Source: an uncultured Gammaproteobacteria bacterium (GTDB taxonomy: Bacteria; Pseudomonadota; Gammaproteobacteria; UBA9214). From it: a stretch of 64,000 nucleotides of DNA. Of this stretch, positions 14,914-61,111 are shown piece after piece. A program made the translations under genes and the position numbers. The first letter of the stretch is position 1; the number at the start of each line of letters is the position of its first letter. The DNA is taken from NCBI GenBank assembly GCA_963748215.1, contig CAVVHS010000008.1, forward strand, positions 160,001-224,000, in the 5' to 3' direction. Below the pieces are notes generated by a model. It was not told the origin of the DNA, did no database searches, and was given only the letters and a program-made list of their open reading frames with translations.

Positions 14914-14981
14914 TTTAACATTATCAGGCTGTACCGTGAGGAGTCCAGCACCATTCCGGATTGACTGCGGGAGACAGGATC

Positions 14982-15626
14982 ATGCTGCGTATCCATGTAT
15001 CAATGAAATTCACCAACCAGCCGGTCAAGCGAACACCGGTGATTCTCTATCTCGATACCAACCCTGAACACCCGATCGAGGGTGCTACCGACCGCACTGG
15101 CACAGCGGAATTCGACATACCACCCGCGAGCGGCAAGGTGATGATTAACGGCGCCGCGCGCTACCATGGCCGCCTGGAGGGCGATGTGGATATCAGTCTC
15201 TGGTCACCAACCGACGCGGGCACGGTCGCCGAATCCGGGACACCCGGTGGCGATGCAGGCGGCAGCATCGCCTACCCCGGCATGCAGACCCGCACGCTCA
15301 GTATCGATGGAACCGAAGTACAGACCGACAGCGAGGGTTACCTGGTCAATCTCGATGACTGGTCGGAAGCCTTTGTGCGCGCAGAGGCCGAACACGAAGG
15401 CCTTGCGCTTACGGATGAAGTCTGGGAGGTGATCCGTTTCCTGCGGGATTTTTACGAGCAACACCGGGTCCAGGCCAATGTGCGTGAGATCATCAAGCAT
15501 TTCCGCAAGGTGTGGGGACCTGAGCTGGGCAGCAATCACCATCTGCATGCCATCTTTCCGCGAGGCGGCCCGCAGAAACAGGGCAACCGGCTGGCGGGAC
15601 TGCTGCGCACCAAGGGTGAACACTAG
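14982..15626 (+). CDS. TusE/DsrC-family protein lacking C-terminal Cys, with an extra N-terminal beta domain
   Basis: TDSEGYLVNLDDWSE...LTDEVWEVIRFLRDFY...FPRGGPQKQGNRLAGLLRTKGEH; ~100-aa N-terminal extension. Confidence 0.88.
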   Translation: MLRIHVSMKFTNQPVKRTPVILYLDTNPEHPIEGATDRTGTAEFDIPPASGKVMINGAARYHGRLEGDVDISLWSPTDAGTVAESGTPGGDAGGSIAYPGMQTRTLSIDGTEVQTDSEGYLVNLDDWSEAFVRAEAEHEGLALTDEVWEVIRFLRDFYEQHRVQANVREIIKHFRKVWGPELGSNHHLHAIFPRGGPQKQGNRLAGLLRTKGEH

Positions 15627-18131: not shown

Positions 18132-18599
18132 TCAGATATCCCATTGCCGCTTTATCTTCGAAGTATCGAACTCAGCCAGTTTGCGTAACAGCTCATCGCG
18201 GCTGGTTTTCAGGATATGACTGGCCATGGGCAGGAAGATATCCTCCTCTTTCTCATGATGCTTGATCATCTGGTAGTCGAGATGCGCCAGGCACTCGAGT
18301 ACGTGGTCCGAGTCCCGGGTCCTGATGACCCGCGCCGTGTCCCGGATCAGGCGGATGATATCGGTATGCTCCTCCCGCAGCGCCATGGTCGGACCCTGTG
18401 GTGCCTGGGGTGATGATTCATAGGCGGGATACAGCACCTCTTCCTCCAGGGCCATATGCCGCTTCAGGTGCGTAACGAGTTCATGGATTATCTGATCAAC
18501 GGCCCTCCAGTCCTCTGTTTCCACGGCATCCCGGCATCGGGACAGCAGGTTTTCATACAGGGAGTGTTCATGTACCAGCCAGTTGTCCGTGCGGTTCAT
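18132..18599 (-). CDS. Hemerythrin (HHE) domain protein
   Basis: H..HMALEEEVLYP..EH..HHEKEEDIFLP. Confidence 0.9.
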   Translation of the reverse strand: MNRTDNWLVHEHSLYENLLSRCRDAVETEDWRAVDQIIHELVTHLKRHMALEEEVLYPAYESSPQAPQGPTMALREEHTDIIRLIRDTARVIRTRDSDHVLECLAHLDYQMIKHHEKEEDIFLPMASHILKTSRDELLRKLAEFDTSKIKRQWDI

Positions 18600-41500: not shown

Positions 41501-44260
41501 AGCGCGTCGTAGGGCAACAGGACCAGAGTCAGCAATGCAAGCATGATCGGGCGGCCCGCGGATTTGCCTGTCAGGATCAGGTGCACCAGCCAGTCACGTT
41601 CTTCCGGCTTGCGGATGAGCTCGATCACGGCTCCCAGCAAAGTGGGCAGGAACACCACAGCCGCGACCAGCAGCGTCCAGAACCACGCCGGCCCCGGACC
41701 AAACAGCCAGCCACCTGCCAGCAAGGCAAGCAGCGACGGTGGCACCAGGCTGCGCCGAAGATTGTCGAAAATTTTCCATACCGACAAGGCCGATGAGCGG
41801 GTTCGGTTGCCGCTTGGCCTGCGATCCATTTGATCCTGACGATCCGGGCGGCCCGGGCACGCGCGGCAGCAGCCAGCCGGCAAGCTGCCAGTCGCCGCGT
41901 ATCCAGCGGTGTCGCCGGCTGGCCTCGATGGCGTAACTGGCCGGATGCTCTTCAATGAGGTCGACATCGGTCACCAGTGCCGAACGCGCATAGCCGCTTT
42001 CCAGCAGGTCGTGACTGAGAATGAGATTCTCCGGAAAGCGTCCATCGACGGCCTGACGAAACGCGTCCACATCGTAGATGCCCTTGCCGATAAACGACCC
42101 CTCGCCGAAAATATCCTGGTAGACATCCGAAACCTCGCGCGTGTAGGGATCGATGCCTGATTCGCCCGCGAACAGTTTCGTAAAGCGTGACTGGCCTGCA
42201 CTGGTCAGGCTGATCGAAGCGCGTGGCTGCAGAATCGCATAGCCTTCGACAATGCGTCCCTTGTCTGGCATCGTACACCGGCCGATTGAGCGGATGGGCG
42301 ATGTTACCTATCAGTGTGCGTGCCGCATCGCGGGGCAGTTGCGTGTCGGTATCCAGGGTGATGACGTACTTGATCGAAGCGAGGATGGAGGTATCACCGA
42401 CAATATCCGAGAATGCCGTTTGCTCCCCGCCCCGCAGCAAGGCATTGAACTGCTCCAGTTTGCCGCGCTTGCGCTCATAGCCCATCCACACCCGCTCAAC
42501 CGGATTCCACACTCGGGGTCGGTGAAACAGATAGAAGATGCACGGGCGGTCCTCGCGGTAGGTCTCGTTGAGCGCCTCGACGGCTGCGCGCGCGTGGGCG
42601 AGCAACGCGTCATCGTCTGGCAGCGTGCGCTCGGGTGCATCACGGAAATCCGTCAGCAGGGCAAAGAACAGATTCGGATCGCGATTACCGAGATAGCGGA
42701 TCTCCAGGGCTTCGAGCAAGATCATCGATCTCCTGCGGCCTGCCCAGCAAGGTGGGGACAATCACCATCGTGCGGTGAGCGGCTGGAATGCCTTCGCGAA
42801 AAATCCAGTCGGGGTAAGGCCCGGGGCGGCAAGACGAGCGTGACCAACAGGTTCACCAGTGGCACGGCCAGCGCCGAGACGCCGATGAAGCCGGTGATCG
42901 CAAAAAACCAGTACCGCCAGTCACCCGGGCTCGAACCCGCCGAAAGAGAGCAGCACGACCGCTGTCAAAAGCAGCGTGAGCAGCAGGATGGGGCCGAGAT
43001 AAAGGAACAGGCGGAAATGCCGGCTCGCCCGACTGGCTCGTCTGGTCCACGACAAACGGCAGCCGACCGCACGCTCCAGACTCTGCCGTCCGCGATCGAT
43101 CAGGTAGTAGCCGACATGCGCGCTGCGGTCATTGCTACCCAATCGCTCTGCCGCCGTCTGCGCGAGAACAATGGCTTCGCGTGCCACCACTGACTCACTG
43201 CACGAACTGTGCGCACAACCCCGGGCCACGTCTTCGATGACATGCCGGTACCGGTCGCGGGTGGCGAAATCCTGGCTGGCGTGCATCCCCGTCGGGTCTT
43301 CACGCAATGTCTGTTCGACGACACTGAGCGACTCGACGAAATCCTTCCAGTCCATTGCACCGATGAAACGCAGACTGCCGATACTGTTGGCGATGGAGAT
43401 CTGGTTGGTTGCGGCCGTGCGGCCGGCCACCGCCGACAACTGTGTTGCGGTCACCCCTTGTTCGATGAGTTTTTGCTCGAGCCAGGTCTGAACGAAGGCC
43501 ATGGCGGGCCCCTGGGCCTGGAGCCTGGCGTAAAACTCCTCCACAAACGGCGCGGTCAGCGGCACATCGGCATTGGCAAACTCGGCAAGCAACTGGATTA
43601 GCTGTTTCGGTTCCTTTTCGGCCGTCGCGAGCATGCGGTCTGCCCAGGTGATGGCCGCATCGCGCTCCTCGCGCCGACGGGCGATACGCAAGCCAACGCG
43701 GCGCAGGTTTTCCAGCAGCGCCAACTGCAGCATGATCGGGAATGCCCACAATTCGCCCAGCTTTAACGGTTCAGCACTCTGATAGGCGGCGACGAACTGG
43801 GTGGCATTGTCACTGTCGACACGACCATCCATGTGTGAGATCAACTCCAGCGCCAGATCATAGATACGGGGGAAACCGGCTGACAGGCCATCAGCCAGTC
43901 GCGGCAACTGCCGGCTGTAGCCGCGCGGCAGATGCCGACGTGCCAGACCGATCTGCTGCTCGATGAGATAGAAATTGTCGAGCAACCAGGCCTCTGCCGG
44001 CGCGATCCGTTGTCCCGGCCTGGCTGCGGCTGTCACCAGGTCATACGCCGCCAGCAGAACGCGCGCATTGTCCGCCAGTCGTGGCAGCAACCGGTCCGGC
44101 CCCGGACGCGGATCGATGCTATGCTGGCCAGCCAGCGTTACCGCGTGACGCTTCAGTTGCTCGATGCTGAACAACTCCGAGCGCAGTAACTCAGTATCCT
44201 GCTCGTTCCGCAGCGCATTGCGTGTGCGTGACGAAACACCGAAGCCTTTGATGACTATGC
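35542..44260 (-). CDS. Cyclic beta-1,2-glucan synthase (NdvB/Cgs-like; glycosyltransferase, glucoamylase-like and GH94 domains), broken by multiple frameshifts
   Basis: [86 protein letters not shown] over consecutive ORFs; start approximate. Confidence 0.9.
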
Positions 44261-44344
44261 CATTCTCCTTGCTTGAAACCGGGGTGACCGGCACAACACC
44301 GGTCTTGTGTACTGCGTTTGCCTATAACTCATACTACGCGTCAG

Positions 44345-44740
44345 TAGCGAGCCGAGAATGGATGTTCCCATAGCCGGATAAACCGCTCAACAGCGCGATA
44401 CCTGCCACCGCGGAAACGACTGATGCCAGGAAATACCCGATTTGGCGCTGTCGACCGGATTCCGGCTGAAATCCGGGTTGGTAATGAACAGTGCCATCGT
44501 GAAACCGATACCGAAAAGCACCATCCAGGGTCCGGGAATGTCCAGCGCGACATGGAAGAAAAACACGGTCATCAAGCGGTCGTTGTTGCACTCTCTCAAC
44601 GAACTGACGAACTCAAATGCCACGAGTTAAAGGGTCGAACGATATCTCCTGGAGATTCTCATAAAGATGAGTCCACGGGGAATTTGACAGCCCGAGGGCT
44701 GCGATAGTGAACATCAGGAGTATGGCCCCGCCGGTGGTCT
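44345..44740 (-). pseudogene. nhaA: Deleted Na+/H+ antiporter NhaA remnant
   Basis: Fragments GGAILLMFTIAALGLSNSPW, NDRLMTVFFF, GIGFTMALFI, ASVVSAVAG compressed into ~400 bp; 5' end abuts a MITE. Confidence 0.7.
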
Positions 44741-44744
44741 CTAA

Positions 44745-44854
44745 GGAACCTCTGATTAATTCGCCATGCCGGCGCAAGCCGGCATCCAGGCTATTGAAAA
44801 CACTGCATCCCGGCATGCGCCGGGATGACGATGAGTGAATTAATCAGAGGTTCC
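44745..44854. mobile_element. MITE (110 bp) with perfect 18-bp terminal inverted repeats and CTAA target duplication
   Basis: GGAACCTCTGATTAATTC ... GAATTAATCAGAGGTTCC; CTAA at 44741-44 and 44855-58; internal GC hairpins. Confidence 0.88.
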
Positions 44855-45067
44855 CTAACTTGAAAAACCGGGAAAACAGTTTTGTCAGCCGGTCATAAAC
44901 TCCTTTGGCAGTCGGATGATCTCAATAAACGCCTGGATAGAGATAATACAGGCCACCGTACGCCCGCCATCACAGCGTCAGGCCAACATATGCTGAATGC
45001 CTGGCCGTGCCCGCTAAGCCGATGTGGTGTTACTGATCAGGCTGGAGTGCAGTCTTTCAGATCGGAT

Positions 45068-45196
45068 TTAACGAACCCCGTTATCACCCAGCAAACTCTT
45101 TGACTCCTTCCTGGACTTCTTGGCGGCCTTCTTTTCTTTTGGCGTCAGGACAGCTTTCTTCTTCTCTTCCTTGTTACTTTTTCGTTCTTTCGACAT
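45068..45196 (-). CDS. Small Lys-rich protein (42 aa; not in ORF track)
   Basis: GGAG RBS; MSKERKSNKEEKKKAVLTPKEKKAAKKSRKESKSLLGDNGVR*. Confidence 0.7.
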   Translation of the reverse strand: MSKERKSNKEEKKKAVLTPKEKKAAKKSRKESKSLLGDNGVR

Positions 45197-45293
45197 GGTG
45201 TTTCTCCAGTTGATTGTTTGATTATCTTCAGCCTGCTGCTGACAGGCCCGGCCGTCCAGGCCGCATCGACATATTCAGAACTGCCTGATCCCT

Positions 45294-46082
45294 TCATGGC
45301 AGAACACAGTTCTCTTTTCGCTTATTGTAGGACCGATTACATTCCCAGTCGGTTCCGGCAACATTGAGATACGCGTTCTCCGGCACTCTCACAGCGACGC
45401 AAGCCTCGTTGGACGCTAGAAAACCGCGCTCGCACTCCCAGCCAGTCCCGTAGGAGGAATCCGTCAAATAGCCGTTCGGCGGCACCTTAACGGCGACACA
45501 GGATTCATTCATCGCGCGATATCCGCGCTCGCACTCCCAGCCCGAACCGGTGGTGGAGTCCAGGTAATATCCGTTCGCCGGTATCTGGATGGCAACACAG
45601 GAGTCATCGACCTCACGATAACCCCGCTCACAATTCCAGCCGCGTCCGAAGGAGATATTTGTCGGGTATGCATTGACAGGCAACTTGATCGCTGCGCAGG
45701 AATCCTTAAGCGCCCGGTAACCCCGTCCGCACCGCCAGCCATCCCCGTAGGGTGAATTCGTGGAGTATGCATTGGCTGGCACCCTGACGGCTGCGCAGCC
45801 CCCGTTGAGTTCCCGATACCCTCGCTCACACTCCCAACCGCTCCCGTAGGAGGCATTTGTCAGGTATGCATTTGCAGGTACCTTGACAGCTGCACAAGCC
45901 CCGTTGACCGCTCGAAAGCCCTGGTTACAGTCCCATCCTTTGCCATAATCCTTTGCGCGAGCATTCTCGGGCACCCCGGAGGAACCGTCCTGGGCGAACA
46001 CATGGCCGTGCACAATCGCCAGCAGCGCGAGAAGAATCAGCGCGCGCATGGAAAAAACAGGTGTTTGTCGCAATCTACTCAT
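45294..46082 (-). CDS. Secreted Cys-rich tandem-repeat protein (7 repeats of ~33 aa)
   Basis: Signal peptide; repeated P-x-N-A-Y...G-W-x-C-x-R-G-Y...C. Confidence 0.85.
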   Translation of the reverse strand: MSRLRQTPVFSMRALILLALLAIVHGHVFAQDGSSGVPENARAKDYGKGWDCNQGFRAVNGACAAVKVPANAYLTNASYGSGWECERGYRELNGGCAAVRVPANAYSTNSPYGDGWRCGRGYRALKDSCAAIKLPVNAYPTNISFGRGWNCERGYREVDDSCVAIQIPANGYYLDSTTGSGWECERGYRAMNESCVAVKVPPNGYLTDSSYGTGWECERGFLASNEACVAVRVPENAYLNVAGTDWECNRSYNKRKENCVLP

Positions 46083-46095
46083 GAGAAAATCCTTA

Positions 46096-46194
46096 TTATG
46101 ATGACACTTGAAGAAAGATTACCAGGGCGATGGAAATCGTGGCTGACAGTAACATCAGCAACCACCAGGTAAACCGGAAAGTTCTTTGCGTCAT
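46096..46194 (-). CDS. Putative single-TM small protein (32 aa)
   Basis: MTQRTFRFTWWLLMLLSATISIALVIFLQVSS*, ending 13 nt before the repeat-protein start. Confidence 0.4.
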   Translation of the reverse strand: MTQRTFRFTWWLLMLLSATISIALVIFLQVSS

Positions 46195-47162
46195 GGCACT
46201 TGCGCCCCTATGGCCGATTGATATAGCTAGCCGGAGAGGAGCAGCCAGGCAAAGCGGCTGTTATTCCTGATCGGTTAGTGGTGCTGTAAAGCACTCACCG
46301 GCCGAAATTTCCCTGGGAGAAAATAGGGGGAGGTAAGAGCTTGGATAATACACCCGCAGGCATCAATGTGTCCAAGCCTTTAATCCATACAGGGGTTAAA
46401 TTATGACGATCACAGCACCCCGGTCATGACACGTTCAGCAAGTGACCGATGTCGCTGCCAGCGTCATCGGTCAAGGCAAGAGATCTCTGATGAAATATGT
46501 AACGCGGTAGCGCGGCGTTGCTTACCTGAATTCATTTCCGCACCCTCTTTCGAACCGATTATCACGACGCACTTAACCGCAGTGGCCGGAACACTCTCCA
46601 TGCCAGGCTTCCGGGGAACAGCCAGAACCGGGAAGCGTCGCAGATAAATCTGCTGTCCTAACCCGTGTCAAAAGATAAATGTACACAGCTACGGATCGTT
46701 CCGCCAAACGCGGTTGCGTCACACACATCTCACACCGCTTATCAGGACATTCCCGGGCAATCCGCAAGGTGGATTGCCATCACGCATCATTCCTGCAATA
46801 CGATTCAACCCTGTTTATGGTCGTACCAGGGACCTGCTGAACAGATACGGCATTCTTTATGCTGTATTCGGGACGCGACCGGTTCACAGTTGCCCGTCGT
46901 TGGTTCAACGGCTGGTGACAGAGTGCCCGCTCATGCGGTCACTACAATTTTACGGGAGATTGACTGGCGGAAGGTCAAAATACCGTGCTTGCTCCACCCC
47001 GCCTTCATCTTTCATCGATGAGCTGAACCGGGTGGCAGTGATGCATGACCGGGACAACGAATTCGCGAGGGTGCTGCAAGCTGGCATGCGCGAGCAGGTC
47101 CCGCAAATCTCCCGAATGGAATTTTGACGCGACATGGAAAAACTCGTAACTTACTGATTTAA

Positions 47163-47209
47163 TGGTGGCTACGGGTGAACCTGAACCACCGACCCCGGCA
47201 TGATGAGTG
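47163..47209 (-). repeat. Degenerate copy of tRNA-Met 3' half (att site)
   Basis: TGGTGGCTACGGGTGAACCTGAACCACCGACCCCGGCATGATGAGTG; 4 mismatches to 61035-61081. Confidence 0.88.
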
Positions 47210-47404
47210 GCAGGGTTGGATTGTATCCAACTGTTTTACATGCGAAAAAATGGGACGTCTGTTGCCTCGATTGCGCAACGGTGCATAAGCGTACAGGATT
47301 CTGTCCCGTAAACTCCCGAAGCGATCAGGCACGGACGTTCAACCAAACCAGTCTGCCAAGGATGCAGGCTTGACATATCTGGCTTCGTCAACCATGCTTC
47401 GGTC

Positions 47405-47617
47405 ATGCACAGCATCAAGATCAGCTCCAAGGTCGACGAAGCTACCTGGAACGAACTCAAGGCGCTTGCCGCCGAGACGCACCAGAACGTCTCCGGCCTG
47501 CTCACCGAAGCGATTCGCGAGTTTGTCGCCAGGAAACGCGTACGGCCGGAAGTGTTGAATCACCTCGAGCAGTCCATCGCCGAAAACGAAGAACTGGGCA
47601 AGCTGCTTGCCAAGTGA
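47405..47617 (+). CDS. Antitoxin, ribbon-helix-helix/CopG-like
   Basis: IKISSKVDEATWNELKALA...VSGLLTEAIREF; coupled to Doc toxin. Confidence 0.8.
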   Translation: MHSIKISSKVDEATWNELKALAAETHQNVSGLLTEAIREFVARKRVRPEVLNHLEQSIAENEELGKLLAK

Positions 47618-47993
47618 CCGCGTTGCCTTCCTGAGCCGGGACGAGGTGCTGGCCATCCACAGCACCCTGCTGGATCGCTTTGGAGGGCCCGCGGGGGTGC
47701 GTGATTTCGGGCTGCTGGAAAGTGCCCTGTACCGCCCCCGGACCGGTCACTACGCTGACCTCGCCGAGATGGCCGCCGCGCTGTTCGAATCGCTCATCAT
47801 GAATCACCCCTTCGTCGACGGGAACAAACGTGTCGCGTTCTTTGCGACCGATGTGTTTTTGCGCCTGAACGGTTACAAGTTGAAGGTGGATGCGAACCAG
47901 GCTCACCGGTTCCTGATCGGGCTGCTGGAAAGCAATCGCTGTACGTTTGATGAATTATTGCCGTGGATTCGTGAGAACGTGATTGAACTATAG
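47607..47993 (+). CDS. doc: Doc (death-on-curing, Fic family) toxin
   Basis: GVRDFGLLESAL, NHPFVDGNKR. Confidence 0.92.
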   Translation: MPSDRVAFLSRDEVLAIHSTLLDRFGGPAGVRDFGLLESALYRPRTGHYADLAEMAAALFESLIMNHPFVDGNKRVAFFATDVFLRLNGYKLKVDANQAHRFLIGLLESNRCTFDELLPWIRENVIEL

Positions 47994-48410
47994 GTAAATC
48001 CCGCATTGCTCGTGGCTCGGATTACGGGGATACGGTCAACAACCGCCAACAGACTGTACAAAACGGAGAATAACAATCCGGGCAAGAGCAGTCGAAGTGC
48101 CAGCCACGTGTACCCCATACTGCCGGATGTTGTACTCAATTATGCCGGTGCCCGTTGCATCGATTGCACAACCATGCATGACTTACTCAACACAGTCCGG
48201 GAACATCCCGTACGGATTGATTGGGGATTCTGGAAAGTATACCTGCACGCGTTCAATATTATCCGGTAACAGGCGGAGATGATGCACACTGCGCCAGACA
48301 TGCCGACCAGCCGCACGTACCGTTACTGACACCCGCCAGCAGGCACCCTGACAGATAGCCAGCATCACCCCTGCTCGTGCAAGCATCCGACGAAAACGGT
48401 GCCGCCGACG

Positions 48411-48447
48411 GTGAAACACCATTTCACTGCGTGAAGCGTGCTTGCAC
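48411..48447. promoter_or_regulatory. Tandem putative enhancer sites for a sigma54 activator
   Basis: GTGAAA-N5-TTTCAC and GTGAAG-N5-TTGCAC, 20 bp apart, ~120-160 bp upstream of the -24/-12 element. Confidence 0.55.
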
Positions 48448-48568
48448 ATGCCTAACCGGCTGAGTTGGCAGGCAGTTGTTCTGCTACTACTCCAAAGATA
48501 CTGCAGCGGAATTTCCCGGCGGTGCCACGAGTGTTGGCATCTACCTGTTTAATCATCAAATTAGCAGC

Positions 48569-48583
48569 TGGCATGGGTATTGC
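48569..48583 (+). promoter_or_regulatory. Sigma54 (-24/-12) promoter of nirK
   Basis: TGGCATG-GGTA-TTGC. Confidence 0.8.
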
Positions 48584-48685
48584 TTTGTTCCTGATACGTC
48601 GCAATAAACCTGAGCGGCGCGGGAAGTGCCGCCGCGAGGCGGACTACATAAATTCAAACAACATCAAGCAAAGGGGAAAAATACC

Positions 48686-49720
48686 ATGAACCAAACAACA
48701 ACGCGGCTATTGAATGTACTGGGGACCGCCGTCCTGGGGTGTCTGTTGAACGTATCCGCGGCCACTGCGACTCCCGTGGTTGCCACCGTGGCCAAAGACC
48801 CCACGGATGTCCCGGCGCCTATCCGTCGGAGCAAGCCGACAACCGTGACAGTGAACCTGATCGCCACGGAAGTCATAACCGAGATCGCACCCGGCAAGAA
48901 GGCGTGGGTGTGGACGTTTAACGACACCGTGCCCGGGCCCATGATTCGGGTGATGCAGGGGGATACGGTCGTGATCAACCTCACCAACGACATGAATAAC
49001 GAAGAACCGCACAACATCGACTTCCATGCGTCCATGGGACCGGGCGGTGGTGCGTCGGTGACCAACGTTGAGCCGGGTGAAACCGCGACCCTGAGCTTCA
49101 AGGCCCTCAAACCCGGCGCGTTTATTTACCACTGTGCCGGCGAGGGCATGGCCTGGGAGCATATCACCTACGGCATGTACGGCCTGATCATGGTCGAACC
49201 CAAAGGTGGTCTCAAGAAAGTGGATCGCGAGTTCTACGTGGCGCAGCAGGACTGGTACCATGACGTTCTGAGCGGGGGTGCCCATGGGCTTCCGGATTAC
49301 GTTTATATTCTGGACGACGACAAGGCCCTGGATGAACACCCGAGCATGTACACCTTCAACGGGCACCAGCAGGCACTGGCCGACCCGGCGCTGTTCGGAG
49401 ATGCCATGCATTCACGGCAAGGTGACAAGGTGCGCTTCTTCTTCGTCAACGGTGGGCCGAACAAGTCCTCGGCCTGGCATATCATCGGCACGATCTTCGA
49501 CGAGGTCTACAGGAGCGACCCGAAGGATGCCGTGCGCGCCGAGGAAACCGTGGCAGTACCGCCCGGCTCGGCGGCCGTGTTCGAGCTGACCACGCCGGTG
49601 CCCGGCAAGTACCTGCTGGTTGACCATGCCTTGTGGAGAGCACCGAAGGGTGCCGCCGGCTTCCTCACTGTCGACCAGACCGGTGCCTGGCCGGACGACA
49701 TCTTCTCGCCGCAACCGTAG
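48686..49720 (+). CDS. nirK: Copper-containing nitrite reductase
   Basis: Signal peptide, PHNIDFH, YHCA..EHITYGMYG, WHIIG, LVDH. Confidence 0.92.
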   Translation: MNQTTTRLLNVLGTAVLGCLLNVSAATATPVVATVAKDPTDVPAPIRRSKPTTVTVNLIATEVITEIAPGKKAWVWTFNDTVPGPMIRVMQGDTVVINLTNDMNNEEPHNIDFHASMGPGGGASVTNVEPGETATLSFKALKPGAFIYHCAGEGMAWEHITYGMYGLIMVEPKGGLKKVDREFYVAQQDWYHDVLSGGAHGLPDYVYILDDDKALDEHPSMYTFNGHQQALADPALFGDAMHSRQGDKVRFFFVNGGPNKSSAWHIIGTIFDEVYRSDPKDAVRAEETVAVPPGSAAVFELTTPVPGKYLLVDHALWRAPKGAAGFLTVDQTGAWPDDIFSPQP

Positions 49721-52450: not shown

Positions 52451-52599
52451 CAGCCATGACCCTGCGCGTGGTCAGCCATAGGATCGGAGTGATTTGCATC
52501 CCGGCAAGCCATCCCTTAGGGTTGCCTCATCCATTGAGCCGGGACATTGCCCCGGCCGGTACCATACATCATATACCGGTATATTCTCCGGCCCTGGCT

Positions 52600-54168
52600 G
52601 TGAACACTGACAGAGACAAACTCACCACCGGAGGGCGGTCGACAAGAACCACGGGGCTCGTGCTGGCTGCTGTTGCAGGCGCGGCCGTGATGGTGGTCGA
52701 ACTGGGGGTCGCGCGCGTTCTGACCCCGGTGTTCGGCGGTTCCATTTCGGTGTGGGCGATCGTGATCGCGACCACCATGCTGGCGCTGGCCGCCGGTTAT
52801 GCCTACGGCGGCTATCGGGCCGACCGCAGTGGGGGAATGGTGGTAGCGGGTCGCGCTGCGGTCATCGGAGCGCTGCTGTGCGCCGCCATTCCCCTGATTC
52901 GCCTGCCGCTGATCGAGGCCACCATCGAACTTTCCACGCTGGCCGGTGCAGCCACCGTTGCCCTCATCCTGATCGCACCGTCGTTGTTCTTTCTCAGCCA
53001 GGTCTCACCGGCGCTGATCCGCGGACTCGCGTCAGACGGCGTCACCCATGTGGGTATCACGGCGGGTGGCATCTACGCGGTATCCACGCTCGGCAGCCTG
53101 TTCGGCACCCTGGCAGCGGTCTGGCTGTTCCTCTATCTGCCGCTCGCGAGCGGGTTCCTGGCGACGGCGGTCCTGGTGGCGCTGCCGGTGCTGCTGTTAA
53201 GGCCCGTCGCCGCAGGCACTGCCCTGGCGGGGATGGCGGTCCTGCTGGCGCTATCAGCCGGCCCGCTGGTAAAACTGTCCGCGGGCGAGGTCATTCACGA
53301 GCAGGGCTTCAGTCTGCTGGAGACACGGAACTCTCCCTACGGTGAACTGCGCGTGATCGAGCAGCAGGACAGGGTCCGCTACATGCTGGTCAATGGATTC
53401 GACCAGGGCGGCATCTTTCTCTTCAGCGGCGAGTCCGCCTACGATTTCGATGACGGCCTGATTGGCCTGGCGGACATGTACGCCACGGCGCCCGCCGACC
53501 GGGTCCTGCTGATCGGGCTGGGCCCCGGTGTCATTGCAAACACGCTGGCAGAGAGGGGTCTGCAGGTCGATGTCGTGGAGATCGATACCGAGGTCTATCG
53601 GATCGCGCGCGACTATTTCGGTTACGGCGGCGAGGTCATCGTGGATGATGGCAGGCGTTTCCTGCGGCGCACGCAAGAGACCTGGGACATCATCATCGTC
53701 GATGCTTTCGCCGGTGGCAGCCCGCCATGGCAACTCTACACACGCGAGGCCTTTGCCCTCTACCAGGCACACCTGAATACCGGCGGGGTCGTGGTGCTCA
53801 ATTTCATCGGTAGCCATCTGGACCCCGGGCAGCGTCCGGCGCTCGAGGCAGTGGCCAGCACGGCGCGGCAGGTGTTCGCCACGGTCGATGTCTATCCCAG
53901 CCCCTGGGAAGCGGTGGACTATCCCACACGCAACATCTTCATCGCCGCGGCCGCGGCACCGCTCCCGGCCGGTCGGCGTGAGCGCGGGGACCCGTTCGAG
54001 GCCGACACCCTGTCGGAGGCGCTGGCCCGCACCCTGCCCATCGAGGTCGACGCGGGGCGGGTACTGAGGGATGATTCGGCGCCGCTGGAGCCGCTGGTGC
54101 GCCGCACCACCGAGATACTGCGCAACCGGGTGCGCGAATATCTCCCGGTCGGCCTGTTGATCCGCTAG
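52600..54168 (+). CDS. Fused membrane domain / spermidine synthase-like methyltransferase
   Basis: ~7 TM (GAAVMVVEL, YAVSTLGSLFGT), VLLIGLGPG, VEID, DGRRFL, IIVDAF; start uncertain. Confidence 0.85.
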   Translation: MNTDRDKLTTGGRSTRTTGLVLAAVAGAAVMVVELGVARVLTPVFGGSISVWAIVIATTMLALAAGYAYGGYRADRSGGMVVAGRAAVIGALLCAAIPLIRLPLIEATIELSTLAGAATVALILIAPSLFFLSQVSPALIRGLASDGVTHVGITAGGIYAVSTLGSLFGTLAAVWLFLYLPLASGFLATAVLVALPVLLLRPVAAGTALAGMAVLLALSAGPLVKLSAGEVIHEQGFSLLETRNSPYGELRVIEQQDRVRYMLVNGFDQGGIFLFSGESAYDFDDGLIGLADMYATAPADRVLLIGLGPGVIANTLAERGLQVDVVEIDTEVYRIARDYFGYGGEVIVDDGRRFLRRTQETWDIIIVDAFAGGSPPWQLYTREAFALYQAHLNTGGVVVLNFIGSHLDPGQRPALEAVASTARQVFATVDVYPSPWEAVDYPTRNIFIAAAAAPLPAGRRERGDPFEADTLSEALARTLPIEVDAGRVLRDDSAPLEPLVRRTTEILRNRVREYLPVGLLIR

Positions 54169-54285: not shown

Positions 54286-54345
54286 TGACAGATCTGACAG
54301 TCCTGGCTGACAGATATGTCAGCGTACTGCATGACAATAATGTCA
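54286..54345. promoter_or_regulatory. Three TGACA-N4-TGTCA-type enhancer sites
   Basis: TGACAGATCTGACA (54286), TGACAGATATGTCA (54308), TGACAATAATGTCA (54332). Confidence 0.65.
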
Positions 54346-54438
54346 TGATAAATGGCAGTCGTGCCAGCCAGATATGGCAAACTTCAAATCAATATACGAA
54401 GAAAGTACTAGTACGCTGAGGCTTATCTCAAGTCAAAC

Positions 54439-54453
54439 TGGCACATTAATTGC
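54439..54453 (+). promoter_or_regulatory. Sigma54 promoter of the multiheme cytochrome gene
   Basis: TGGCACA-TTAA-TTGC. Confidence 0.85.
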
Positions 54454-54569
54454 TAGCAAGATCTGTAACCGTAATCGATACGGGTTCGGTGCTTTTTAAC
54501 AAAATCGGAAAGGTTCGGAATCGTAGCTGATTACGAACCATCTCAAGATCCCATCAGGGGGGGCCAGGC

Positions 54570-57500
54570 ATGACAACAACACATTTCCTGCATATTACGC
54601 GTCGTATGCTGGCGGCCATCGGGGGCGGCGCCATACTGGCACTCGCTGCCGCGCCGGCGCTGGCCGCGCCGGGCGGCGGTGGCACGCCCATCTCCTGCAA
54701 CAGCATCAGTCCCTACCAGTGGTACGGTGGGCGTACCGGTTATCTACACCGTGAGTACCTCGGGCGGCAAGGGCGGCAAGTCCTATGCCTGGACCTTCTC
54801 CGGGCCGGCAGCGCCGACGGCCTCCACTCTTGCTACGCCCTCGGTGACCTACAGCGCCGCCGGCACCTTCGGGGTCAGCGTGCATGTCACCGACAGGAGC
54901 GGCGAGTGCACCGCCAACGCCAACATAACGATAGCGGGCGGGACCAACAATCCGCCGGTGGCCAACAACGACAGCTATGACGCCACCGATGGACAGACGC
55001 TCAGCGTCGGCGCCCCGGGTGTGCTCGGCAATGACACGGACGAGACACCGGCAACGCTGACCGCCGTGCTGCAGACGGGGACGACCAAGGGAACGCTGAA
55101 CCTGAATGCCAGCGGTGCCTTTACGTATGACTACACCGGCACGGGTCCCTTCCCCGGACACGGACAGCTTCACCTACCAGGCGCAAGGACGACATCAACC
55201 AGCTCTCCAACACCGCCACCGTCACGATCACCATCGCGGAAGGCGGCGTCACGGGTGGCTCGCCGGTGGGCCGTGGTGACACCTACGCGACCCCGGTCGG
55301 CACCGCGCTCAACGTGACGGCCTACCGTCTCGCGGGCGTGCTGTACAACGACTTCGACACCGATGCCGGCGGCAACAACATCGGCAACGCCGGCCTGACG
55401 GCAACAACTGGTCAGCGGCCCGACCAACGCCGCGAGCTTCTCCTTCAATGCGGACGGTTCGTTCAGCTACACGCCGAGCACGAGCCTGAGCGACAACGAC
55501 AACGACAGCTTCACCTACCGGGCCAGCGACGGCAGCAACCTGTCGGCCGTCACCACGGTGAACATCAATATCCTGTCGAAGCAGACGGACTTCAAGATCA
55601 TCATGAACTACGAGCTGGGCATGCACTGCACCGGCTTCGAGTTCGCCTACTGCTGCGTACTGCCGCCCTACAACTCCATCCTGGCGCAGGTCGTCAAGCC
55701 GCAGACACCGGGTGACCCGGTCACCGGCGCCGACTTCCCGCGCCTGCTGGAAGGCGACCACAACAACACCGATGGCCTCGGCCGGCCGATCGTGATGCGT
55801 GACGCGGCCCTGGACGGCAACGGCAACTTCAAGAAGTATTTCCTGGAGTACTACCACGACGCGCAGCCGCGCCACGAGGGCCAGGGCAAGGTCCAGACCT
55901 CGACGCTGATCAGCGCGGTCGAGGGCAACTCGCTGTTCTACACATCGACGATCTACGACTCGGCGGCACCGGATACCAATGGCAAGCTGGTCTACGGTCA
56001 CCTACGAGGGCGCCGACGGCGTGGTGCTGGGCGACGGGGATTTCAACGACCCGACCGACAACTACGCCAACGGCTGGCTGAACCACTTCTACATCTACGC
56101 CGACCTGGAAGGCAGCAACCCCGCCGGCACCAGCCTCGACTCCGCGAAGATCCGTCTCGGCGTCACCGGTCATGTGGAGTACCCGGCCGACGTCGGTGCG
56201 GCCCTGCAGCCCATGGGCCCGACCGGCAGCGCGGCCGGCTTCGACAACGTGCTGACCTTCTCGGGCGACACCGGCACCGTGGTCTACACCCAGATGAAGG
56301 TGCTGGAGAACCTGCCGGTCATGCTGACCTCGCCGGACATCTGGGAGGCCCTGGGCCTGCCGCTGACGCCGTTCGAGGACAGCATCGACTTCTTCGGCGA
56401 TCCCGGCGCGGTGGACGAGGACTCGATCCGTCCCTACGTGGCGATGAAGGCGCACCTGCATGTCGCGAACTGCGATGCCAACGGTCAGAACTGCACCCAG
56501 GGCAACGCGGTGATCGGCAGCAACGGCAAGCCGGTGATCGGCCACGGCACGGCGCCGATCGACATCCCGAACTGCGAGCGCTGCCACTCGGTGCCGGCCA
56601 TGACGGGCAGGGCAACCGAACATCAACAGCCCGAGCTACATCCGTCAGCGACTTCACCTTCCCGCACGGCGGCACCTATGCCGGCGCGACACTGGAGGCG
56701 GTGACCGACGCGGAGAACAGTTTCTGGGATGCCTACTACGGCATCGTCGCCGGGCGTGGACTCCGACTGGTACTCGCGCCTGAAGGGTGCGGCGATCAAC
56801 ATGCTGGCGCTGCATGACTTCGACCAGGGCACCAGCTTCACGGCCAACTGGCCGTCGGGCAGCTGCCAACGAGTGCCGGCCTGCCGCAGAACACCCGCCT
56901 CGGCAAGGAGAGCGTGATCTGCCAGAAGTGCCATGCGGACAACGTCATCGCGGTGGTGAAATCCGCCTACAAGGATGCCGGCCTGACGCAGGTCATCAAG
57001 CCGATCACCGAGGCGATCCACTGGCGCCACCGTGAGATCAGCGAGGGTGGCAGTATCGACTTCGCCGATAGCGGCGGGCCGCAGCGGCGGTTGCCAGGGC
57101 TGTCATCCGGCGCACCGCTCCGACGGCGTGATGGACGGCTATCCGATCACCCTGGGCGGCGACAACGCACAGGCCAACAGCGACAACCGCGCTGGCCAGT
57201 GGCGGCTGCTTCGTCGGCCGCGACGTGCACTCCAACCCGATGAAGGACGTCGACGGTGCCGAGACGCCGTCACACCTCAACGCGGTCGGCAGCTGGCTGG
57301 CCGACAACGTGTTCAACAACCAGGATGGCGTGGCCGGCGTGGCCGGCACGACACCGCGGTCTCTGGTGCACCAACTGCCACACCCAGCTGGGCCAGGAGA
57401 TGTGGAAGGCCGAGAACTGTCCGGACCTGATCAACGGCGACTGCATCACCAACCCGCGCGGTCGGACCGACGCTGGCGGCGGTGGCCGCGGCCGTCGGCG

Positions 57501-58596
57501 TGAGCCAGGCGCAGGCGATCGCCTGGCTGGATCCGACGGCCGGCAACCCGCTGGGTGACTTCACCCATGCGATCTGGGATCCGAGCATCGCCGATGCGAA
57601 TCTCGCGATCATCGAGGTCCGCAACGGTGCACCCTTCGGCACCACGGATGCAGACGGTGACTTCTCGGTGCGCATCCTGGACTTCTGCACCACGCCGGAC
57701 TGCGTGTCGGCAGCCCAGGCCGTGCTCAGACGGCGAGGGCAATGGCGGTCGGCGGTGGCGGTGCCGTTCTCTGCGGCCACCGACGGTCGCGACCACTGGC
57801 TGGCCCGGGCGAACCGCACTGCGCGGACTGCCATGCGGCACCGTACGTGGAGCAGAGGGCGGCAACGCCGGCGAGGTCAATGCCTGGGGCGACACCAGTT
57901 CAGCCGCCGTTCAACTACCCGCGCAAGGCGAGCCTGATGCGCTACTCGACGCGGCCACCAGGACATCACCTGCCAGGGTTGCCACGAGTCGATCCATGGT
58001 CTGTATCCGGTGACGCCGACCATCGACATCGACCAGCTACGCGCAGGCGGCGGCGCTGAACCATGACGGTTCGCACGGCCCGCTGAAGTGCGGCACCTGC
58101 CACACGGTGGGCACCAACGGTCATCCCGACCTGGATCCGCAAGACATCGATCTTCGGCGGGAATCTGGACGCGGCGACGACCTGGGCGCATACCTACACC
58201 GAGGATGCCGATCCGCTCGACTCGACCTGCCAGAACTGCCACGGCGATCGCCGCAGCAAGATCGGCGAGGACAAGGGCAAGTGGCTGCGGCACTCGTTCC
58301 TGGGCCGCATCGGTCGCCTGACGCAGGACAAGGCCGAGATCTCGGCGCTGGGTCACGTGGCGGGCGATCCCGACACCAACGGTGACGGTACGCCGGATCG
58401 CACGGCGACGCAGATCGCCAACACGGTCTGCACCGCCTGCCACTCGCTCAACGGCGGTCCCTCGGGCAACTTCCTGAGCCTGGCCACCTGCAGCAACCCG
58501 ACCTGGAAGCAGCACCTGGTGCAGGGTCGCCTGTCCGAAGTGACCTGGGAGTTCATCTCCGAGTCACAGAACGGCGGCTCGACCTGCGGCTGGTAG
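54570..58596 (+). CDS. Large secreted multiheme c-type cytochrome with N-terminal PKD and Ig/cadherin-like repeats (one gene broken by many frameshifts)
   Basis: Signal peptide; PKD-like YAWTF; NNPPVANNDSY..GVLGND repeats; MNYELGMHC..CCVLPPYN; nine CXXCH (CERCH, CQKCH, CQGCH, CTNCH, CADCH, CQGCH, CGTCH, CQNCH, CTACH). Confidence 0.85.
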
Positions 58597-58650
58597 AGTC
58601 CCCACGGTCCCGCCGGCACCCGGTGCCGGCGGGACTCTCACGCAAGCGAT

Positions 58651-58681
58651 GGAGGGGGAGCCGTTCCCCCTCCTTTTTTTT
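58651..58681 (+). terminator. Rho-independent terminator
   Basis: GGAGGGGGA-GCCGT-TCCCCCTCC plus T8; another long hairpin at ~58607-58635. Confidence 0.88.
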
Positions 58682-58838
58682 GCCCTGCATACACGGCCGG
58701 ATCCGTCCGGTTCCCGACCGTTGTCTCGGCGGGTAGACAAATTCCGCCGCGTTGACTGCCGGGACGGGAACGGGAGCCTGCCGCGGGTTGTCTCACTGCG
58801 GTATCATGACAAACCTATAGAATTCGGGAACATGCCTT

Positions 58839-60350
58839 ATGAATCGTGTAATTGACAGCGCCTTGCGCGCACTCCTCCTGACGACGGGCCTCGGGCTGCT
58901 GGCGGCCTGTGATTCCGCGTCGCACCCCTCGGCGGCCGTAGCCGAAGAGGCCGCGCCGGCGGCGTCGCAATCCGCGGCGACCGCGGCACCGTCCGACGAC
59001 GTGATCGCCCGGGTCGGTGACCAGGCCATTCACTTCAGCGAGCTGAATACGATGCTGAACAGTTCGGCGGTGGTGGGGGTCTCGATCCCCGCCCTGGGTA
59101 CACCGCAGCGCGATACCGTGCGTATCACGCTGCTGGACAAGATGGTTGACGCCAACCTGCTCTACCTGGACGCCCTGCGCCAGGGGCTGGACAAGGACCC
59201 GGCCTATACGCGGGAGACAGGCAATTTTTCGGATGCCATTCTGCAGGGGCTGTACCGTGACCGGGTCATGCTCGCAGGTGCCGAGGTCAGCGCGGCGGAC
59301 ATCGAGACATTCCACAGGGAAAATTCCGTGGAAGGTGCCGAGCTGACCGATGAACTGCGCACCGTGATCGCGGCGAATCTGCGCAAGCAGCGACTCGATG
59401 CGCAGAGCGAGACGCTGCGCGCCCGTCTGCGCGAGGGCGTGACCGTGGAACTCAACGATGCCGCGCTGGATCCGCTCCAGGACGCCGAACGTCCGAATGA
59501 TACCGTGCTGGCAACCATCGACGGGGTGGCACTGACCTGGAGCGAGGTCAAGGACCGCCTCGGTACCCAGGTGAGTTCCGCCTCCGGCGAGGACCGCCGC
59601 GCGGCGGTGAATGCGCTCGTGGACATGCGCATCAGCGTGGACAAGGCCCGGGCTGCCGGACTGGACCAGGACCCGGCGTACACGGCCCGGGTCGGGGAAT
59701 ACCGCAAGACCAGTCTCATCAATCTGCACCGCGGCAACCTTGCGGCCGGGATGGAGCCGGATGACGCAGCGCTGCGTGCCTACTTCGAGGCGAATCGTGC
59801 GCGCATCACCGTACCGGAATTTCGCAAGGTACAGATGGTGGTGCTGAAGTCGCGGGAGGAGGCCGAGGCCATCAAGGCCCGGGTCGAAGCCGAGGATCTG
59901 ACCATGTACCAGGCGGTCGCCGAGCATTCCATCGCGCCCGAGGCGGACAAGAACCTGGGCGAGATCGGCTGGGTGGCCAAGGGCAAGGCGCTGCCGGAGC
60001 TGAACGATGTCGTGTTTTCCCTGCAGCCGGGCGAGATCGGCGGGCCGGTGCAGGTCGGTGACGTCTGGCACCTGGTGACGGTACAGGATTTGCGGGATGC
60101 GAAGTACACGGATCTCAGCGAGCCGGCCACCCGCAAGCTGGCTCGGCGGATGTACATCCACGACAAGCTGGCTGGCTATAGCGCGGATTTGCGCAAGAAC
60201 GACTTCTCGGTCGAGGTCTACGAGGACAGGCTGATTGCGCTCGCCCAGCAGGAGGCGGACATGGTCCGGCAGCTGTCGGAGAAGGCAGGCGAGCCGGGTT
60301 CGGTCACGCAGCAGCGCATCAAGGAACTGCAGAAGATCTACGAGCAGTAG
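58839..60350 (+). CDS. Lipoprotein with SurA-like and parvulin (PpiC) PPIase domains
   Basis: Lipobox LLAAC; EHSIAP..NLGEIGWV..GEIGGPV..WHLV. Confidence 0.85.
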   Translation: MNRVIDSALRALLLTTGLGLLAACDSASHPSAAVAEEAAPAASQSAATAAPSDDVIARVGDQAIHFSELNTMLNSSAVVGVSIPALGTPQRDTVRITLLDKMVDANLLYLDALRQGLDKDPAYTRETGNFSDAILQGLYRDRVMLAGAEVSAADIETFHRENSVEGAELTDELRTVIAANLRKQRLDAQSETLRARLREGVTVELNDAALDPLQDAERPNDTVLATIDGVALTWSEVKDRLGTQVSSASGEDRRAAVNALVDMRISVDKARAAGLDQDPAYTARVGEYRKTSLINLHRGNLAAGMEPDDAALRAYFEANRARITVPEFRKVQMVVLKSREEAEAIKARVEAEDLTMYQAVAEHSIAPEADKNLGEIGWVAKGKALPELNDVVFSLQPGEIGGPVQVGDVWHLVTVQDLRDAKYTDLSEPATRKLARRMYIHDKLAGYSADLRKNDFSVEVYEDRLIALAQQEADMVRQLSEKAGEPGSVTQQRIKELQKIYEQ

Positions 60351-60353
60351 GCG

Positions 60354-60848
60354 ATGTCCACGAGTCGTGGCGCATACAGGCGTAGTTGGGGCGGGATGCG
60401 GCGTGCCCTGCCGGCGCAGCGCCGTGCGGTGGCCACAGGTACCTGCGGCCTACTGGTGGCCGTTCTGCTGCTGGTCTGTCCGGGTGCGCCGCTGCGGGCG
60501 GATGATTTCCTCTCGCCCGGTATTGCACCCGTGGACCTGCAGCAGCGGCTCGCCAGTGACCGGGCGCCGCTGGTCGTGGACCTGCGTGCGCCGGTCGAAT
60601 ACAGCATTGCCCACATCCCCGGCGCGATCAATGTGCCTGTCACCGAACTGGAGGCGCGCATCGAGGAACTCAGGAACCCGAACGGCGTGGTGATCTACTG
60701 TCTCAACGGCAGCCGCACGCGCCAGGCCGAGCCCATCCTGTACGCTCACGATATCGATAACTTCTCCCGCCTGGAGGGCACGCTGCAGGCCTGGCTGAAG
60801 CAGAATCTGCCGTATGAGAAGGGCGGGGTGCAGCGCACCGGCTGGTAG
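60354..60848 (+). CDS. Exported single-domain rhodanese (sulfurtransferase)
   Basis: VVDLR..EY..AHIPGAINVP, active-site YCLNGSRT, LEG..AW; signal-like segment; start uncertain. Confidence 0.87.
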   Translation: MSTSRGAYRRSWGGMRRALPAQRRAVATGTCGLLVAVLLLVCPGAPLRADDFLSPGIAPVDLQQRLASDRAPLVVDLRAPVEYSIAHIPGAINVPVTELEARIEELRNPNGVVIYCLNGSRTRQAEPILYAHDIDNFSRLEGTLQAWLKQNLPYEKGGVQRTGW

Positions 60849-61034: not shown

Positions 61035-61111
61035 TGGTGGCTACGGGTGGACTTGAACCACCGACCCCAGCATTATGAGTGCTGTGCTCTAACCAGCTGA
61101 GCTACGTAGCC
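61035..61111 (-). tRNA. tRNA-Met (CAT), elongator type
   Basis: GGCTACGTAGCTCAGCTGGTTAGAGCACAGCACTCATAATGCTGGGGTCGGTGGTTCAAGTCCACCCGTAGCCACCA cloverleaf with encoded CCA. Confidence 0.97.

Follow-up and report, generated by a model that had tools for sequence, protein, structure and literature searches.

What does a cytochrome gene encode when no single frame carries it from start to stop, and does such a gene stand for a working protein? The question is raised by a gene of about 4 kb in a 64,000-nt stretch of DNA (hereafter the window; positions 160,001 to 224,000 of contig CAVVHS010000008.1), which lies within the 3.5-Mb, nine-contig genome of an uncultured gammaproteobacterium. Our answer, to which we assign a probability of roughly 0.6, is that the gene is intact in nature and would encode a Sec-exported nonaheme cytochrome on a stalk, with a foldase partner, a sigma-54 switch and a role in electron transfer or redox chemistry outside the cytoplasm. 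For the gene, the family, the partner and the regulation taken alone, our confidence is high.

The gene extends over 54570–58596 on the forward strand, from an ATG at 54570 to a stop codon at 58594–58596, and its reading switches among all three frames. Since tblastn with the paralogs described below merged the frames and could not place the breaks, we used our own frameshift-aware alignment of the window DNA with the closest public homolog (P0085, a 1339-aa metagenome "hypothetical protein"). Residues 1–1339 of P0085 are all covered, and 1057 of the 1323 aligned columns are identical (79.9%), with 19 frame changes and no in-frame stop codon. The breaks lie near 54711, 55153, 55196, 55404, 56002, 56606, 56646, 56746, 56859, 57070, 57191, 57354, 57469, 57728, 57751, 57807, 57949, 58028 and 58125; at sixteen of them the window has a single base too many and at three a single base too few, and the frame is open over 58087–58596. 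Two further shifts (58361 and 58437) and a stop (58385), which appeared in an alignment with the paralog on C7, were rejected as false, because they are absent from the alignment with the closer P0085 and the frame there is open. The fragments that the initial annotation proposed to join thus align end to end as one open reading frame (ORF), and its product is predicted to be a secreted nonaheme c-type cytochrome of ~1340 aa, whose frame is broken 19 times in this assembly.

The translated 5′ end carries a predicted signal peptide without a lipobox, no Cys following the cleavage region. Pfam searches with the 5′ fragments identified PKD_4 (28.6 bits, cut-off 27), Cadherin_4 (E = 9.2e-13), Big_9 and Cadherin_5, which correspond to the stalk listed in Table 1. 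The core begins at KQTDFKIIMNYELGMHC and ends in CGW. A beta-rich domain containing LGMHC (55615), YCC (55648) and LPPYN (55660) comes first and is followed by the region of the nine CXXCH motifs, which start at 56573, 56920, 57092, 57367, 57820, 57971, 58089, 58228 and 58429 and use all three frames; by a rough estimate, the chance expectation is ~0.06. A motif scan of the core found no tenth CXXCH. The heme part also includes three motifs of other kinds, GGCFVGRDVH (57201), ENCPD (57412) and TCSNPTWKQH (58486). Several CXXCH motifs in a predicted exported product mark the window gene as a c-type multiheme cytochrome, and heme attachment is predicted. Pfam and the motif scan therefore confirm the secreted ~4-kb gene with nine CXXCH motifs and PKD and cadherin-like repeats that had been described from the letters of the window.

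Two paralogs in the same genome are intact. The first, on C7, is 1761 aa long and combines three PKD domains with a choice-of-anchor-D domain. The second, on C6, is ~1941 aa long and has a TSP3 repeat besides five cadherin-like repeats; both carry one extra N-terminal CXXCH. A third, distant relative on C6 (974 aa) has an LGMHC..LPPF motif and nine CXXCH. The window core is identical to the C7 core at 708 of 1064 positions (66.5%). When the C7 core was searched against a collection of 5.8 billion proteins, 7,997 scored candidates yielded 378 clusters (90% identity) at E ≤ 0.001. The best 120 of these 378 clusters show 54–100% identity and cover the whole query except in five (one at 84%, the rest at 98–99%). 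Their N-terminal Pfam content differs, and their names are confined to "hypothetical", "PKD repeat", "VCBS repeat", "Bacterial Ig domain" and generic cytochrome labels. A profile search of 1.84 billion representatives at 50% identity gave 476 matches at E ≤ 0.001, 280 at ≤ 1e-10 and 136 at ≤ 1e-30, many of them fragments. Among species-representative genomes, 156 stretches were confirmed at 47–82% identity to the query, and 78 loci were retained from them for context analysis. The carriers are mostly metagenome-assembled genomes (MAGs) of sulfur-oxidising Gammaproteobacteria (Thiogranum, Ectothiorhodospiraceae, Sulfuricaulis, Sulfurifustaceae, Ca. Thiodiazotropha, Sedimenticolaceae and Chromatiaceae), and some others are MAGs of Desulfocapsa, Desulfobacterales, Methylomirabilis, Nitrospirota and Methylococcaceae. 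DNA matches were found in 16 of the 24 other genomes searched from the window's own genus.

About a quarter of the core positions are invariant in an alignment of 59 sequences. Among them are all nine CXXCH, M-H-C-T-G-F-E-F, Y-C-C, G-G-C-F-V-G-R-D-V-H-S-N and other Cys and His residues. In LGMHC, YCC, LPPYN and GGCFVGRDVH, every residue varies little or not at all; TCSNPTWKQH is as strictly kept at its C, W and H, and ENCPD at its Cys, and the remaining positions of these two motifs vary. The additional Cys/His motifs, which the initial annotation had singled out as possible non-canonical heme or metal sites, are thus present, with their key residues conserved. By contrast with the core, the N-terminal modules vary even between close homologs (PKD, cadherin-like, choice-of-anchor D, tandem-95 and TSP3). 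Judged from sequence, the conserved core defines a widespread family without a characterised member, and a literature search, which did not cover supplementary tables, found no description of it. At the other end of the protein, C-G-W stands almost always at the extreme C-terminus in the main family, with an invariant Cys ~28 residues before it, and is lacking in the 974-aa relative; together the two elements may serve as a sorting signal or be joined in a terminal disulfide.

No Pfam or NCBIfam model covers the core in searches with the fragments and the paralogs, and the last ~300 aa give only weak generic matches to Cytochrome_C7 and MtrC/MtrF II/IV. Searches of all Protein Data Bank sequences with phmmer and the family profile found no relevant match, the best cytochrome being cytochrome c7 at E 1.9. 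The heme-binding variants CXXCK, CX3-4CH and CX11-17CH are absent from the three paralogs of the genome. As the window gene could not be submitted whole, AlphaFold2 models were made from an intact paralog, without heme. The 1032-aa core model reached a predicted local distance difference test score (pLDDT) of 66.6 and a predicted template modelling score (pTM) of 0.71, and the model of the last 458 aa reached 83.5 and 0.80, respectively. Foldseek found nothing for the core model at E ≤ 0.001 (best 0.29), a blank that does not show a new fold in a heme-free model. In VIA-align, its best match was a Velvet domain, a generic beta-sandwich, at Z 5.3 (131 residues, root-mean-square deviation (rmsd) 4.5). 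The C-terminal model, likewise heme-free, had no Foldseek match at the same threshold, and VIA-align placed 7 of 48,161 chains at Z ≥ 2, with a best value of 2.6. NrfA, OTR and HAO occur in none of the lists from the sequence searches or from the fold searches with these heme-free models, and the ESM Atlas matches are only unnamed or generic cytochrome clusters. For the enzymes that could be compared, the view that the protein matches no characterised multiheme enzyme is supported by these searches: they returned no family model, no match to a solved sequence and, for heme-free models, no convincing fold.

The gene that follows the cytochrome encodes a peptidyl-prolyl isomerase (PPIase) with the lipobox LLAAC, which scores 70 bits with Rotamase_2 (cut-off 27) and 51.4 bits with Rotamase (cut-off 21.7) and lies below the cut-off of every named NCBIfam equivalog. 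The cytochrome gene is immediately followed by a PPIase homolog in the same orientation in 51 of the 55 loci, out of 78, that extend at least 2.2 kb beyond the cytochrome, and the pairing is found at all three loci of this genome. The co-occurrence expected for a dedicated PPIase is therefore borne out, and the enzyme is a family-wide partner, which we take to be a dedicated foldase.

The initial annotation counted the rhodanese as a second partner, and this holds for the window, where an exported rhodanese follows the parvulin gene, but not for the family. The rhodanese of the window scores 55.5 bits with PF00581 (cut-off 22.2) and has an intact active-site loop, CLNGSR; activity is predicted. 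Among the 50 loci with at least 4.5 kb downstream, a rhodanese gene occurs downstream of the cytochrome in 11, whereas a TlpA/ResA-like thiol-disulfide oxidoreductase is found somewhere in the locus in 32. Within 2.5 kb past the PPIase, nine of the 50 have a rhodanese, four a TlpA-like gene, none both and 37 neither; in 13 of 35 loci with a TlpA-like match, the gene lies 222–392 nt upstream on the same strand. The C6 locus also contains a rhodanese, an FKBP-type PPIase and a TlpA-like gene, and the C7 locus carries a TlpA-like gene and a rhodanese gene in the opposite orientation. Clustering of the neighbours of the 78 loci returned only the PPIase, the activator discussed below, the TlpA-like protein, the rhodanese and lineage-specific genes, with Ccm genes in a few loci. 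The rhodanese is thus optional and occupies the position of thiol-redox maturation helpers, and a role in maturation would fit at least as well as one in substrate handling. At the C6 locus (L010, G000:C6:700001-720000), the gene order is the 1941-aa paralog, parvulin, rhodanese, a 493-aa coiled-coil FKBP-type PPIase, the 974-aa relative and the TlpA-like gene, and a Calx-beta protein gene lies upstream of the cluster.

Control by sigma-54, proposed for the window gene alone, gains support in silico from the homologous loci. The -24/-12 element is the sole match to TGGCAC-N5-TTGC in the window, but at least one match arises in 24 of 100 shuffles, and alone it is weak. However, 13 of 64 homologous loci carry TGGCA[CT]-N5-TTGC in coding orientation close to the gene start, where 0.005 matches would be expected per 800 nt. 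In one of these 13, the exact element precedes the ortholog in G024, a genome of the same genus, and TGGCAT-N5-TTGC lies ~280 nt upstream of the C7 paralog. This conservation makes the window element credible. The two exact dyads, TGACA-N4-TGTCA at 54308–54321 and 54332–54345, lie 131 and 107 nt before the element and are the only two in the 64 kb, a number reached in none of 100 shuffles; the repeat families D1, I8 and I9 cover these sites. Close to the start of the gene, this dyad recurs in 15 of 62 homologous loci, with a background of 10 matches in 909,248 nt, and in the eight loci with both motifs, it stands 63–134 nt upstream of the element, except for one at 435 nt. Sigma-54 activator genes were found in the fetched flanks of 32 of 74 homologous loci, and also upstream of the paralog or orthologs in L009, L021 and L022. 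Those beside the Sulfuricaulis genes combine PAS, AAA+ and Fis-type helix-turn-helix (HTH) domains. The genome encodes RpoN (515.5 bits). The predicted promoter thus has a GG-N10-GC element with candidate activator sites upstream of it, the genome supplies rpoN and the window an activator gene, and the cytochrome gene is probably under sigma-54 control. The N-terminal 185 aa of the activator encoded in the window match no Pfam family. The gene directly upstream of the cytochrome (52456–54168) encodes a fused major facilitator superfamily (MFS)/spermidine-synthase-like protein and is not a regulator. The activator gene of the window stands back to back with a gene for NirK, the copper-containing nitrite reductase, at 48626–49720 on the forward strand (TIGR02376, 297.4 bits, cut-off 296.3).

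Table 1 Positions of the predicted features of the cytochrome locus in the window
Feature	Position	Strand	Basis or remark
Sigma-54 enhancer-binding protein, 501 aa	49866..51371	-	Sigma54_activat E 5.9e-65
Candidate upstream activator sites	54306..54379	.	Two exact dyads and a third, degenerate copy (54353-54379)
Sigma-54 -24/-12 element, TGGCACATTAATTGC	54439..54453	+	TGGCAC-N5-TTGC, 117 nt before the ATG
Sec-type signal peptide (MTTTHF...AAAPALA/AP)	54570..54668	+	Translation; aligns with the N-terminus of P0085
Stalk: one PKD domain and two cadherin-like/Big_9 repeats	54685..55569	+	Pfam on fragments; alignment with repeats of the C6 paralog
Conserved family core, ~1000 aa	55579..58593	+	Motif scan and family alignment
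Terminator-like GC hairpin followed by T8	58651..58673	+	55 nt past the cytochrome stop; 10 pairs, 7 of them G-C
Parvulin-type PPIase lipoprotein, 503 aa, SurA/PrsA-like	58839..60350	+	Rotamase_2 E 4.2e-19
Exported single-domain rhodanese, 164 aa	60354..60848	+	PF00581 E 8.7e-15; start 3 nt past the PPIase stop
tRNA-Met (CAT), downstream edge of the cluster	61035..61111	-	Right after the rhodanese

From these elements, we propose the following course of events. An activator of the AAA+/Fis-HTH type, with a PAS sensor domain in some lineages, would bind the dyads and switch on transcription. The apoprotein would then be exported, loaded with nine hemes and folded with the membrane-anchored parvulin foldase, and a periplasmic thiol-active protein, TlpA/ResA-like in most loci and the rhodanese at the window locus, may act as a helper. 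The mature protein would serve sulfur-oxidising bacteria in electron transfer or redox chemistry outside the cytoplasm. The signal peptide and the variable N-terminal modules, which are of kinds usual in surface proteins, point to an extracytoplasmic and possibly surface location, and most likely the protein is held out at the cell surface on its stalk. For its task there, we tentatively favor electron exchange with insoluble partners, which we rank slightly ahead of an enzymatic role on sulfur compounds.

The latter role, which the initial annotation had proposed, would make the protein a periplasmic or surface oxidoreductase of (poly)sulfur or other sulfur compounds. Catalysis would take place at an unusually ligated heme or at the MHC..YCC and GGCFVGRDVH sites, and sulfane sulfur would be delivered or taken away by the rhodanese. 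Such a role would suit the prevalence of sulfur oxidisers among the carriers, the DsrC-like gene in the window, the rhodanese genes near all three loci of this genome and a strongly conserved core with invariant Cys and His outside the heme motifs. There is also a precedent in MccSep/ExtKL, described as a multiheme polysulfide reductase with a Cys-ligated heme and an immunoglobulin (Ig)-like stem, whose cluster also encodes the rhodanese-like ExtH (PMC13510729). On the other hand, the counts given above, with the maturation-type TlpA-like gene about three times as frequent as the rhodanese, make the argument from the rhodanese thin. The Protein Data Bank searches found no sequence or, with heme-free models, fold similarity to MccA, OTR, HAO, NrfA or TsdA, the paralogs lack CXXCK and CX11-17CH, and their open frames argue against the involvement of a selenocysteine codon. 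We therefore consider a sulfur oxidoreductase rather unlikely. Still less probable, in our view, is a novel class of multiheme redox enzymes, mounted on stalks outside the cell, that would act on insoluble material (for example elemental sulfur, metal sulfides or metal oxides) and be governed by a dedicated PAS-activator/sigma-54 switch; in such an enzyme, the invariant M-H-C...Y-C-C and G-G-C-F-V-G-R-D-V-H would hold an extra cofactor or a Cys-ligated catalytic heme. If this were so, sulfur-oxidising Gammaproteobacteria, lucinid symbionts among them, would have a hitherto unrecognised means of exchanging electrons with solids.

Most likely the gene is intact in nature, and very probably the frame breaks are consensus errors of the assembly. 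We compared the window with Logan contigs from four public runs of two studies; one of the runs may be the source sample. These short-read contigs carry 1-nt indels relative to the window at predicted break sites, and the indel rows listed (56000, 56751, 57802, 57949, 58028 and 58121), beyond which there are 49 further rows, all fall on such sites. For 22 of the 32 contig records listed, the gap count agrees with the count of predicted break sites within the record; it equals or exceeds that count for 31. Contig records cover 16 of the 19 sites, and a 17th (56746) is represented by the indel row at 56751. Over 54505–55630, the contigs have 0–1.3% substitutions and yet show the predicted indels, and two records from different studies (55021/55023–55342) have no substitution and two gaps. 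Furthermore, the cytochrome copies in four few-contig relatives of the same genus (L019–L022 in G024, G018, G002 and G017) are split into two to four open frames each.

The alternative that the window copy is a true pseudogene, a decaying third paralog, would account for 19 frame changes within 4 kb beside flanking genes and two paralogs that are all intact, and the contigs without indels past 55650 may come from other strains. However, contigs with 0–0.5% substitutions show the predicted indels at the first four sites in both studies, and the relatives in few-contig assemblies have similarly fragmented copies. In addition, an excess of indels over substitutions, a single dominant type of change and ~1340 codons without a nonsense codon, at nearly 80% identity to P0085, are signs of consensus error rather than decay. 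We regard a pseudogene as improbable. Programmed frameshifting or phase variation was dropped in view of the 19 sites, the lack of a common slippery context and the intact relatives, and a selenoprotein was dropped because the paralogs have no in-frame stop. Fragmentation of this kind in few-contig assemblies probably leads automatic annotation to call such long genes pseudogenes or to miss them.

Several observations weigh against our reading. Beyond ~55650, the contigs diverge by 2–7% from the window, so the later breaks are shown by intact relatives and not by the same strain, and why errors should be confined to the cytochrome gene, with its neighbors and two paralogs clean, is unexplained. 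Some members of the family, such as P0007 and P0088, are stalk-less. The activator gene of the window lies 3.2 kb from the cytochrome gene and adjoins the NirK gene, which makes its link to the cytochrome uncertain. The hairpin between the cytochrome and PPIase genes means that the two need not be co-transcribed, an indication that the cytochrome gene for the most part forms a transcription unit by itself. The neighbors of the 78 loci include no conserved gene for a porin, a periplasmic MtrA-like multiheme protein or a quinol dehydrogenase, and an electron route to a surface protein is thus missing. Finally, the core identity of ~50–60% between phyla looks more like that of an enzyme than that of a fast-evolving electron conduit.

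Much of the sulfur, iron and nitrogen chemistry of sediments depends on multiheme cytochromes, and few of their families have a known function. The present family, widespread, unusually conserved and found in several copies per genome in ecologically important sulfur oxidisers, has neither a name nor a model, and the searches found no structural relative; its fixed foldase partner and the conserved activator and sigma-54 switch offer experimental handles.

The idea that the cluster travels as the cargo of an island is not supported by its setting. In G024, the order of the upstream gene, the cytochrome ortholog, the PPIase and the rhodanese is kept, the MFS/spermidine-synthase-like gene upstream being 58.7% identical over 489 aa. 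No integrase or transposase Pfam family was found in 48.6–64 kb, a search to which flanking repeats did not belong, and the tRNA-Met gene is the only island-like sign at the cluster. Elsewhere in the window, five consecutive ORFs on the reverse strand at 35667–44294 (606, 1228, 253, 269 and 457 aa) encode domains of the GH94 catalytic, GH94 supersandwich and glucoamylase types. Their combined length is that of a cyclic beta-1,2-glucan synthase, and they may be pieces of one giant gene that is interrupted, as the cytochrome gene is, by frame errors or stops. The adjoining 44300–48600 region has a lower G+C content (0.54–0.56) and few long ORFs; a secreted Cys-rich repeat protein is encoded at 45294–46082 on the reverse strand, and a Phd/Doc-like pair with the motif HPFVDGNKR lies at about 47312–47993. 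Genes for a 221-aa protein with a C-terminal DsrC domain (14961–15626), an NnrS protein (16511–17716) and a hemerythrin (18132–18599) hint at sulfur oxidation and the handling of nitric oxide or oxygen stress in this organism.

Among known systems, the outer-surface metal-reducing cytochromes MtrC, OmcA and UndA of Shewanella, which have ten or eleven hemes, are likewise large secreted c-type multiheme proteins that combine beta-rich and heme-rich domains. Weak Pfam similarity to MtrC/MtrF II/IV lies in the C-terminal pentaheme part of the present family, where an intact paralog scores 35.6 bits with PF22113 (cut-off 30) with no single stretch passing, and UndA appeared in a wide VIA-align search with the full core model at Z 3.8 (137 residues, rmsd 5.2). 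Nevertheless, we consider a divergent member of this group very improbable, because the protein has nine unevenly spaced hemes, no MtrC-type lipobox, no conserved mtrAB-like neighbors and no sequence match to solved MtrC-type chains, and its confidently modeled C-terminal part, in a heme-free model, finds no convincing fold match; an Ig-like stalk and a ~330-aa non-heme LGMHC domain set it further apart.

The octaheme sulfite reductase MccA/SirA is accompanied by the PPIase MccB. In the present family, a multiheme cytochrome gene similarly adjoins the gene of a dedicated PPIase. However, this PPIase is a parvulin lipoprotein, conserved NrfC/NrfD-like partners are lacking, and the paralogs show neither a CX15CH-type motif nor a sequence match to the solved chains. 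MccSep/ExtKL of Geobacter (PMC13510729) is a pentaheme selenoprotein of about 49 kDa that forms periplasmic tetramers, and its cluster includes the gene for ExtH. It shares with the present family the combination of multiheme and Ig-like beta-sandwich parts, conserved Cys residues outside the heme motifs and a cluster that includes a gene of the rhodanese family. The Protein Data Bank searches revealed no sequence relation between the two. In place of five hemes and an in-frame UGA, we find nine hemes in ~1000-aa cores, open frames without selenocysteine in the intact paralogs and a rhodanese in a minority of loci.

UetJ of Ca. Tenderia electrophaga, as described (bioRxiv 10.1101/2022.05.06.490989), has eleven CXXCH and no other domain and was once mis-annotated as a pseudogene; its cluster encodes a PPIase (UetB), a porin, triheme c7 proteins, a cupredoxin and NHL proteins. 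Compared by this description, both are predicted extracellular multiheme cytochromes of uncultured chemolithoautotrophic Gammaproteobacteria with a PPIase in the cluster, whereas the present protein has nine CXXCH together with PKD and cadherin-like domains, and porin, triheme c7, cupredoxin and NHL neighbors are not conserved. The PPIase of the present family resembles PrsA and SurA in its parvulin domain and N-terminal chaperone-like region, and PrsA also in being a lipoprotein, but in contrast to both, it is tied to one client gene family.

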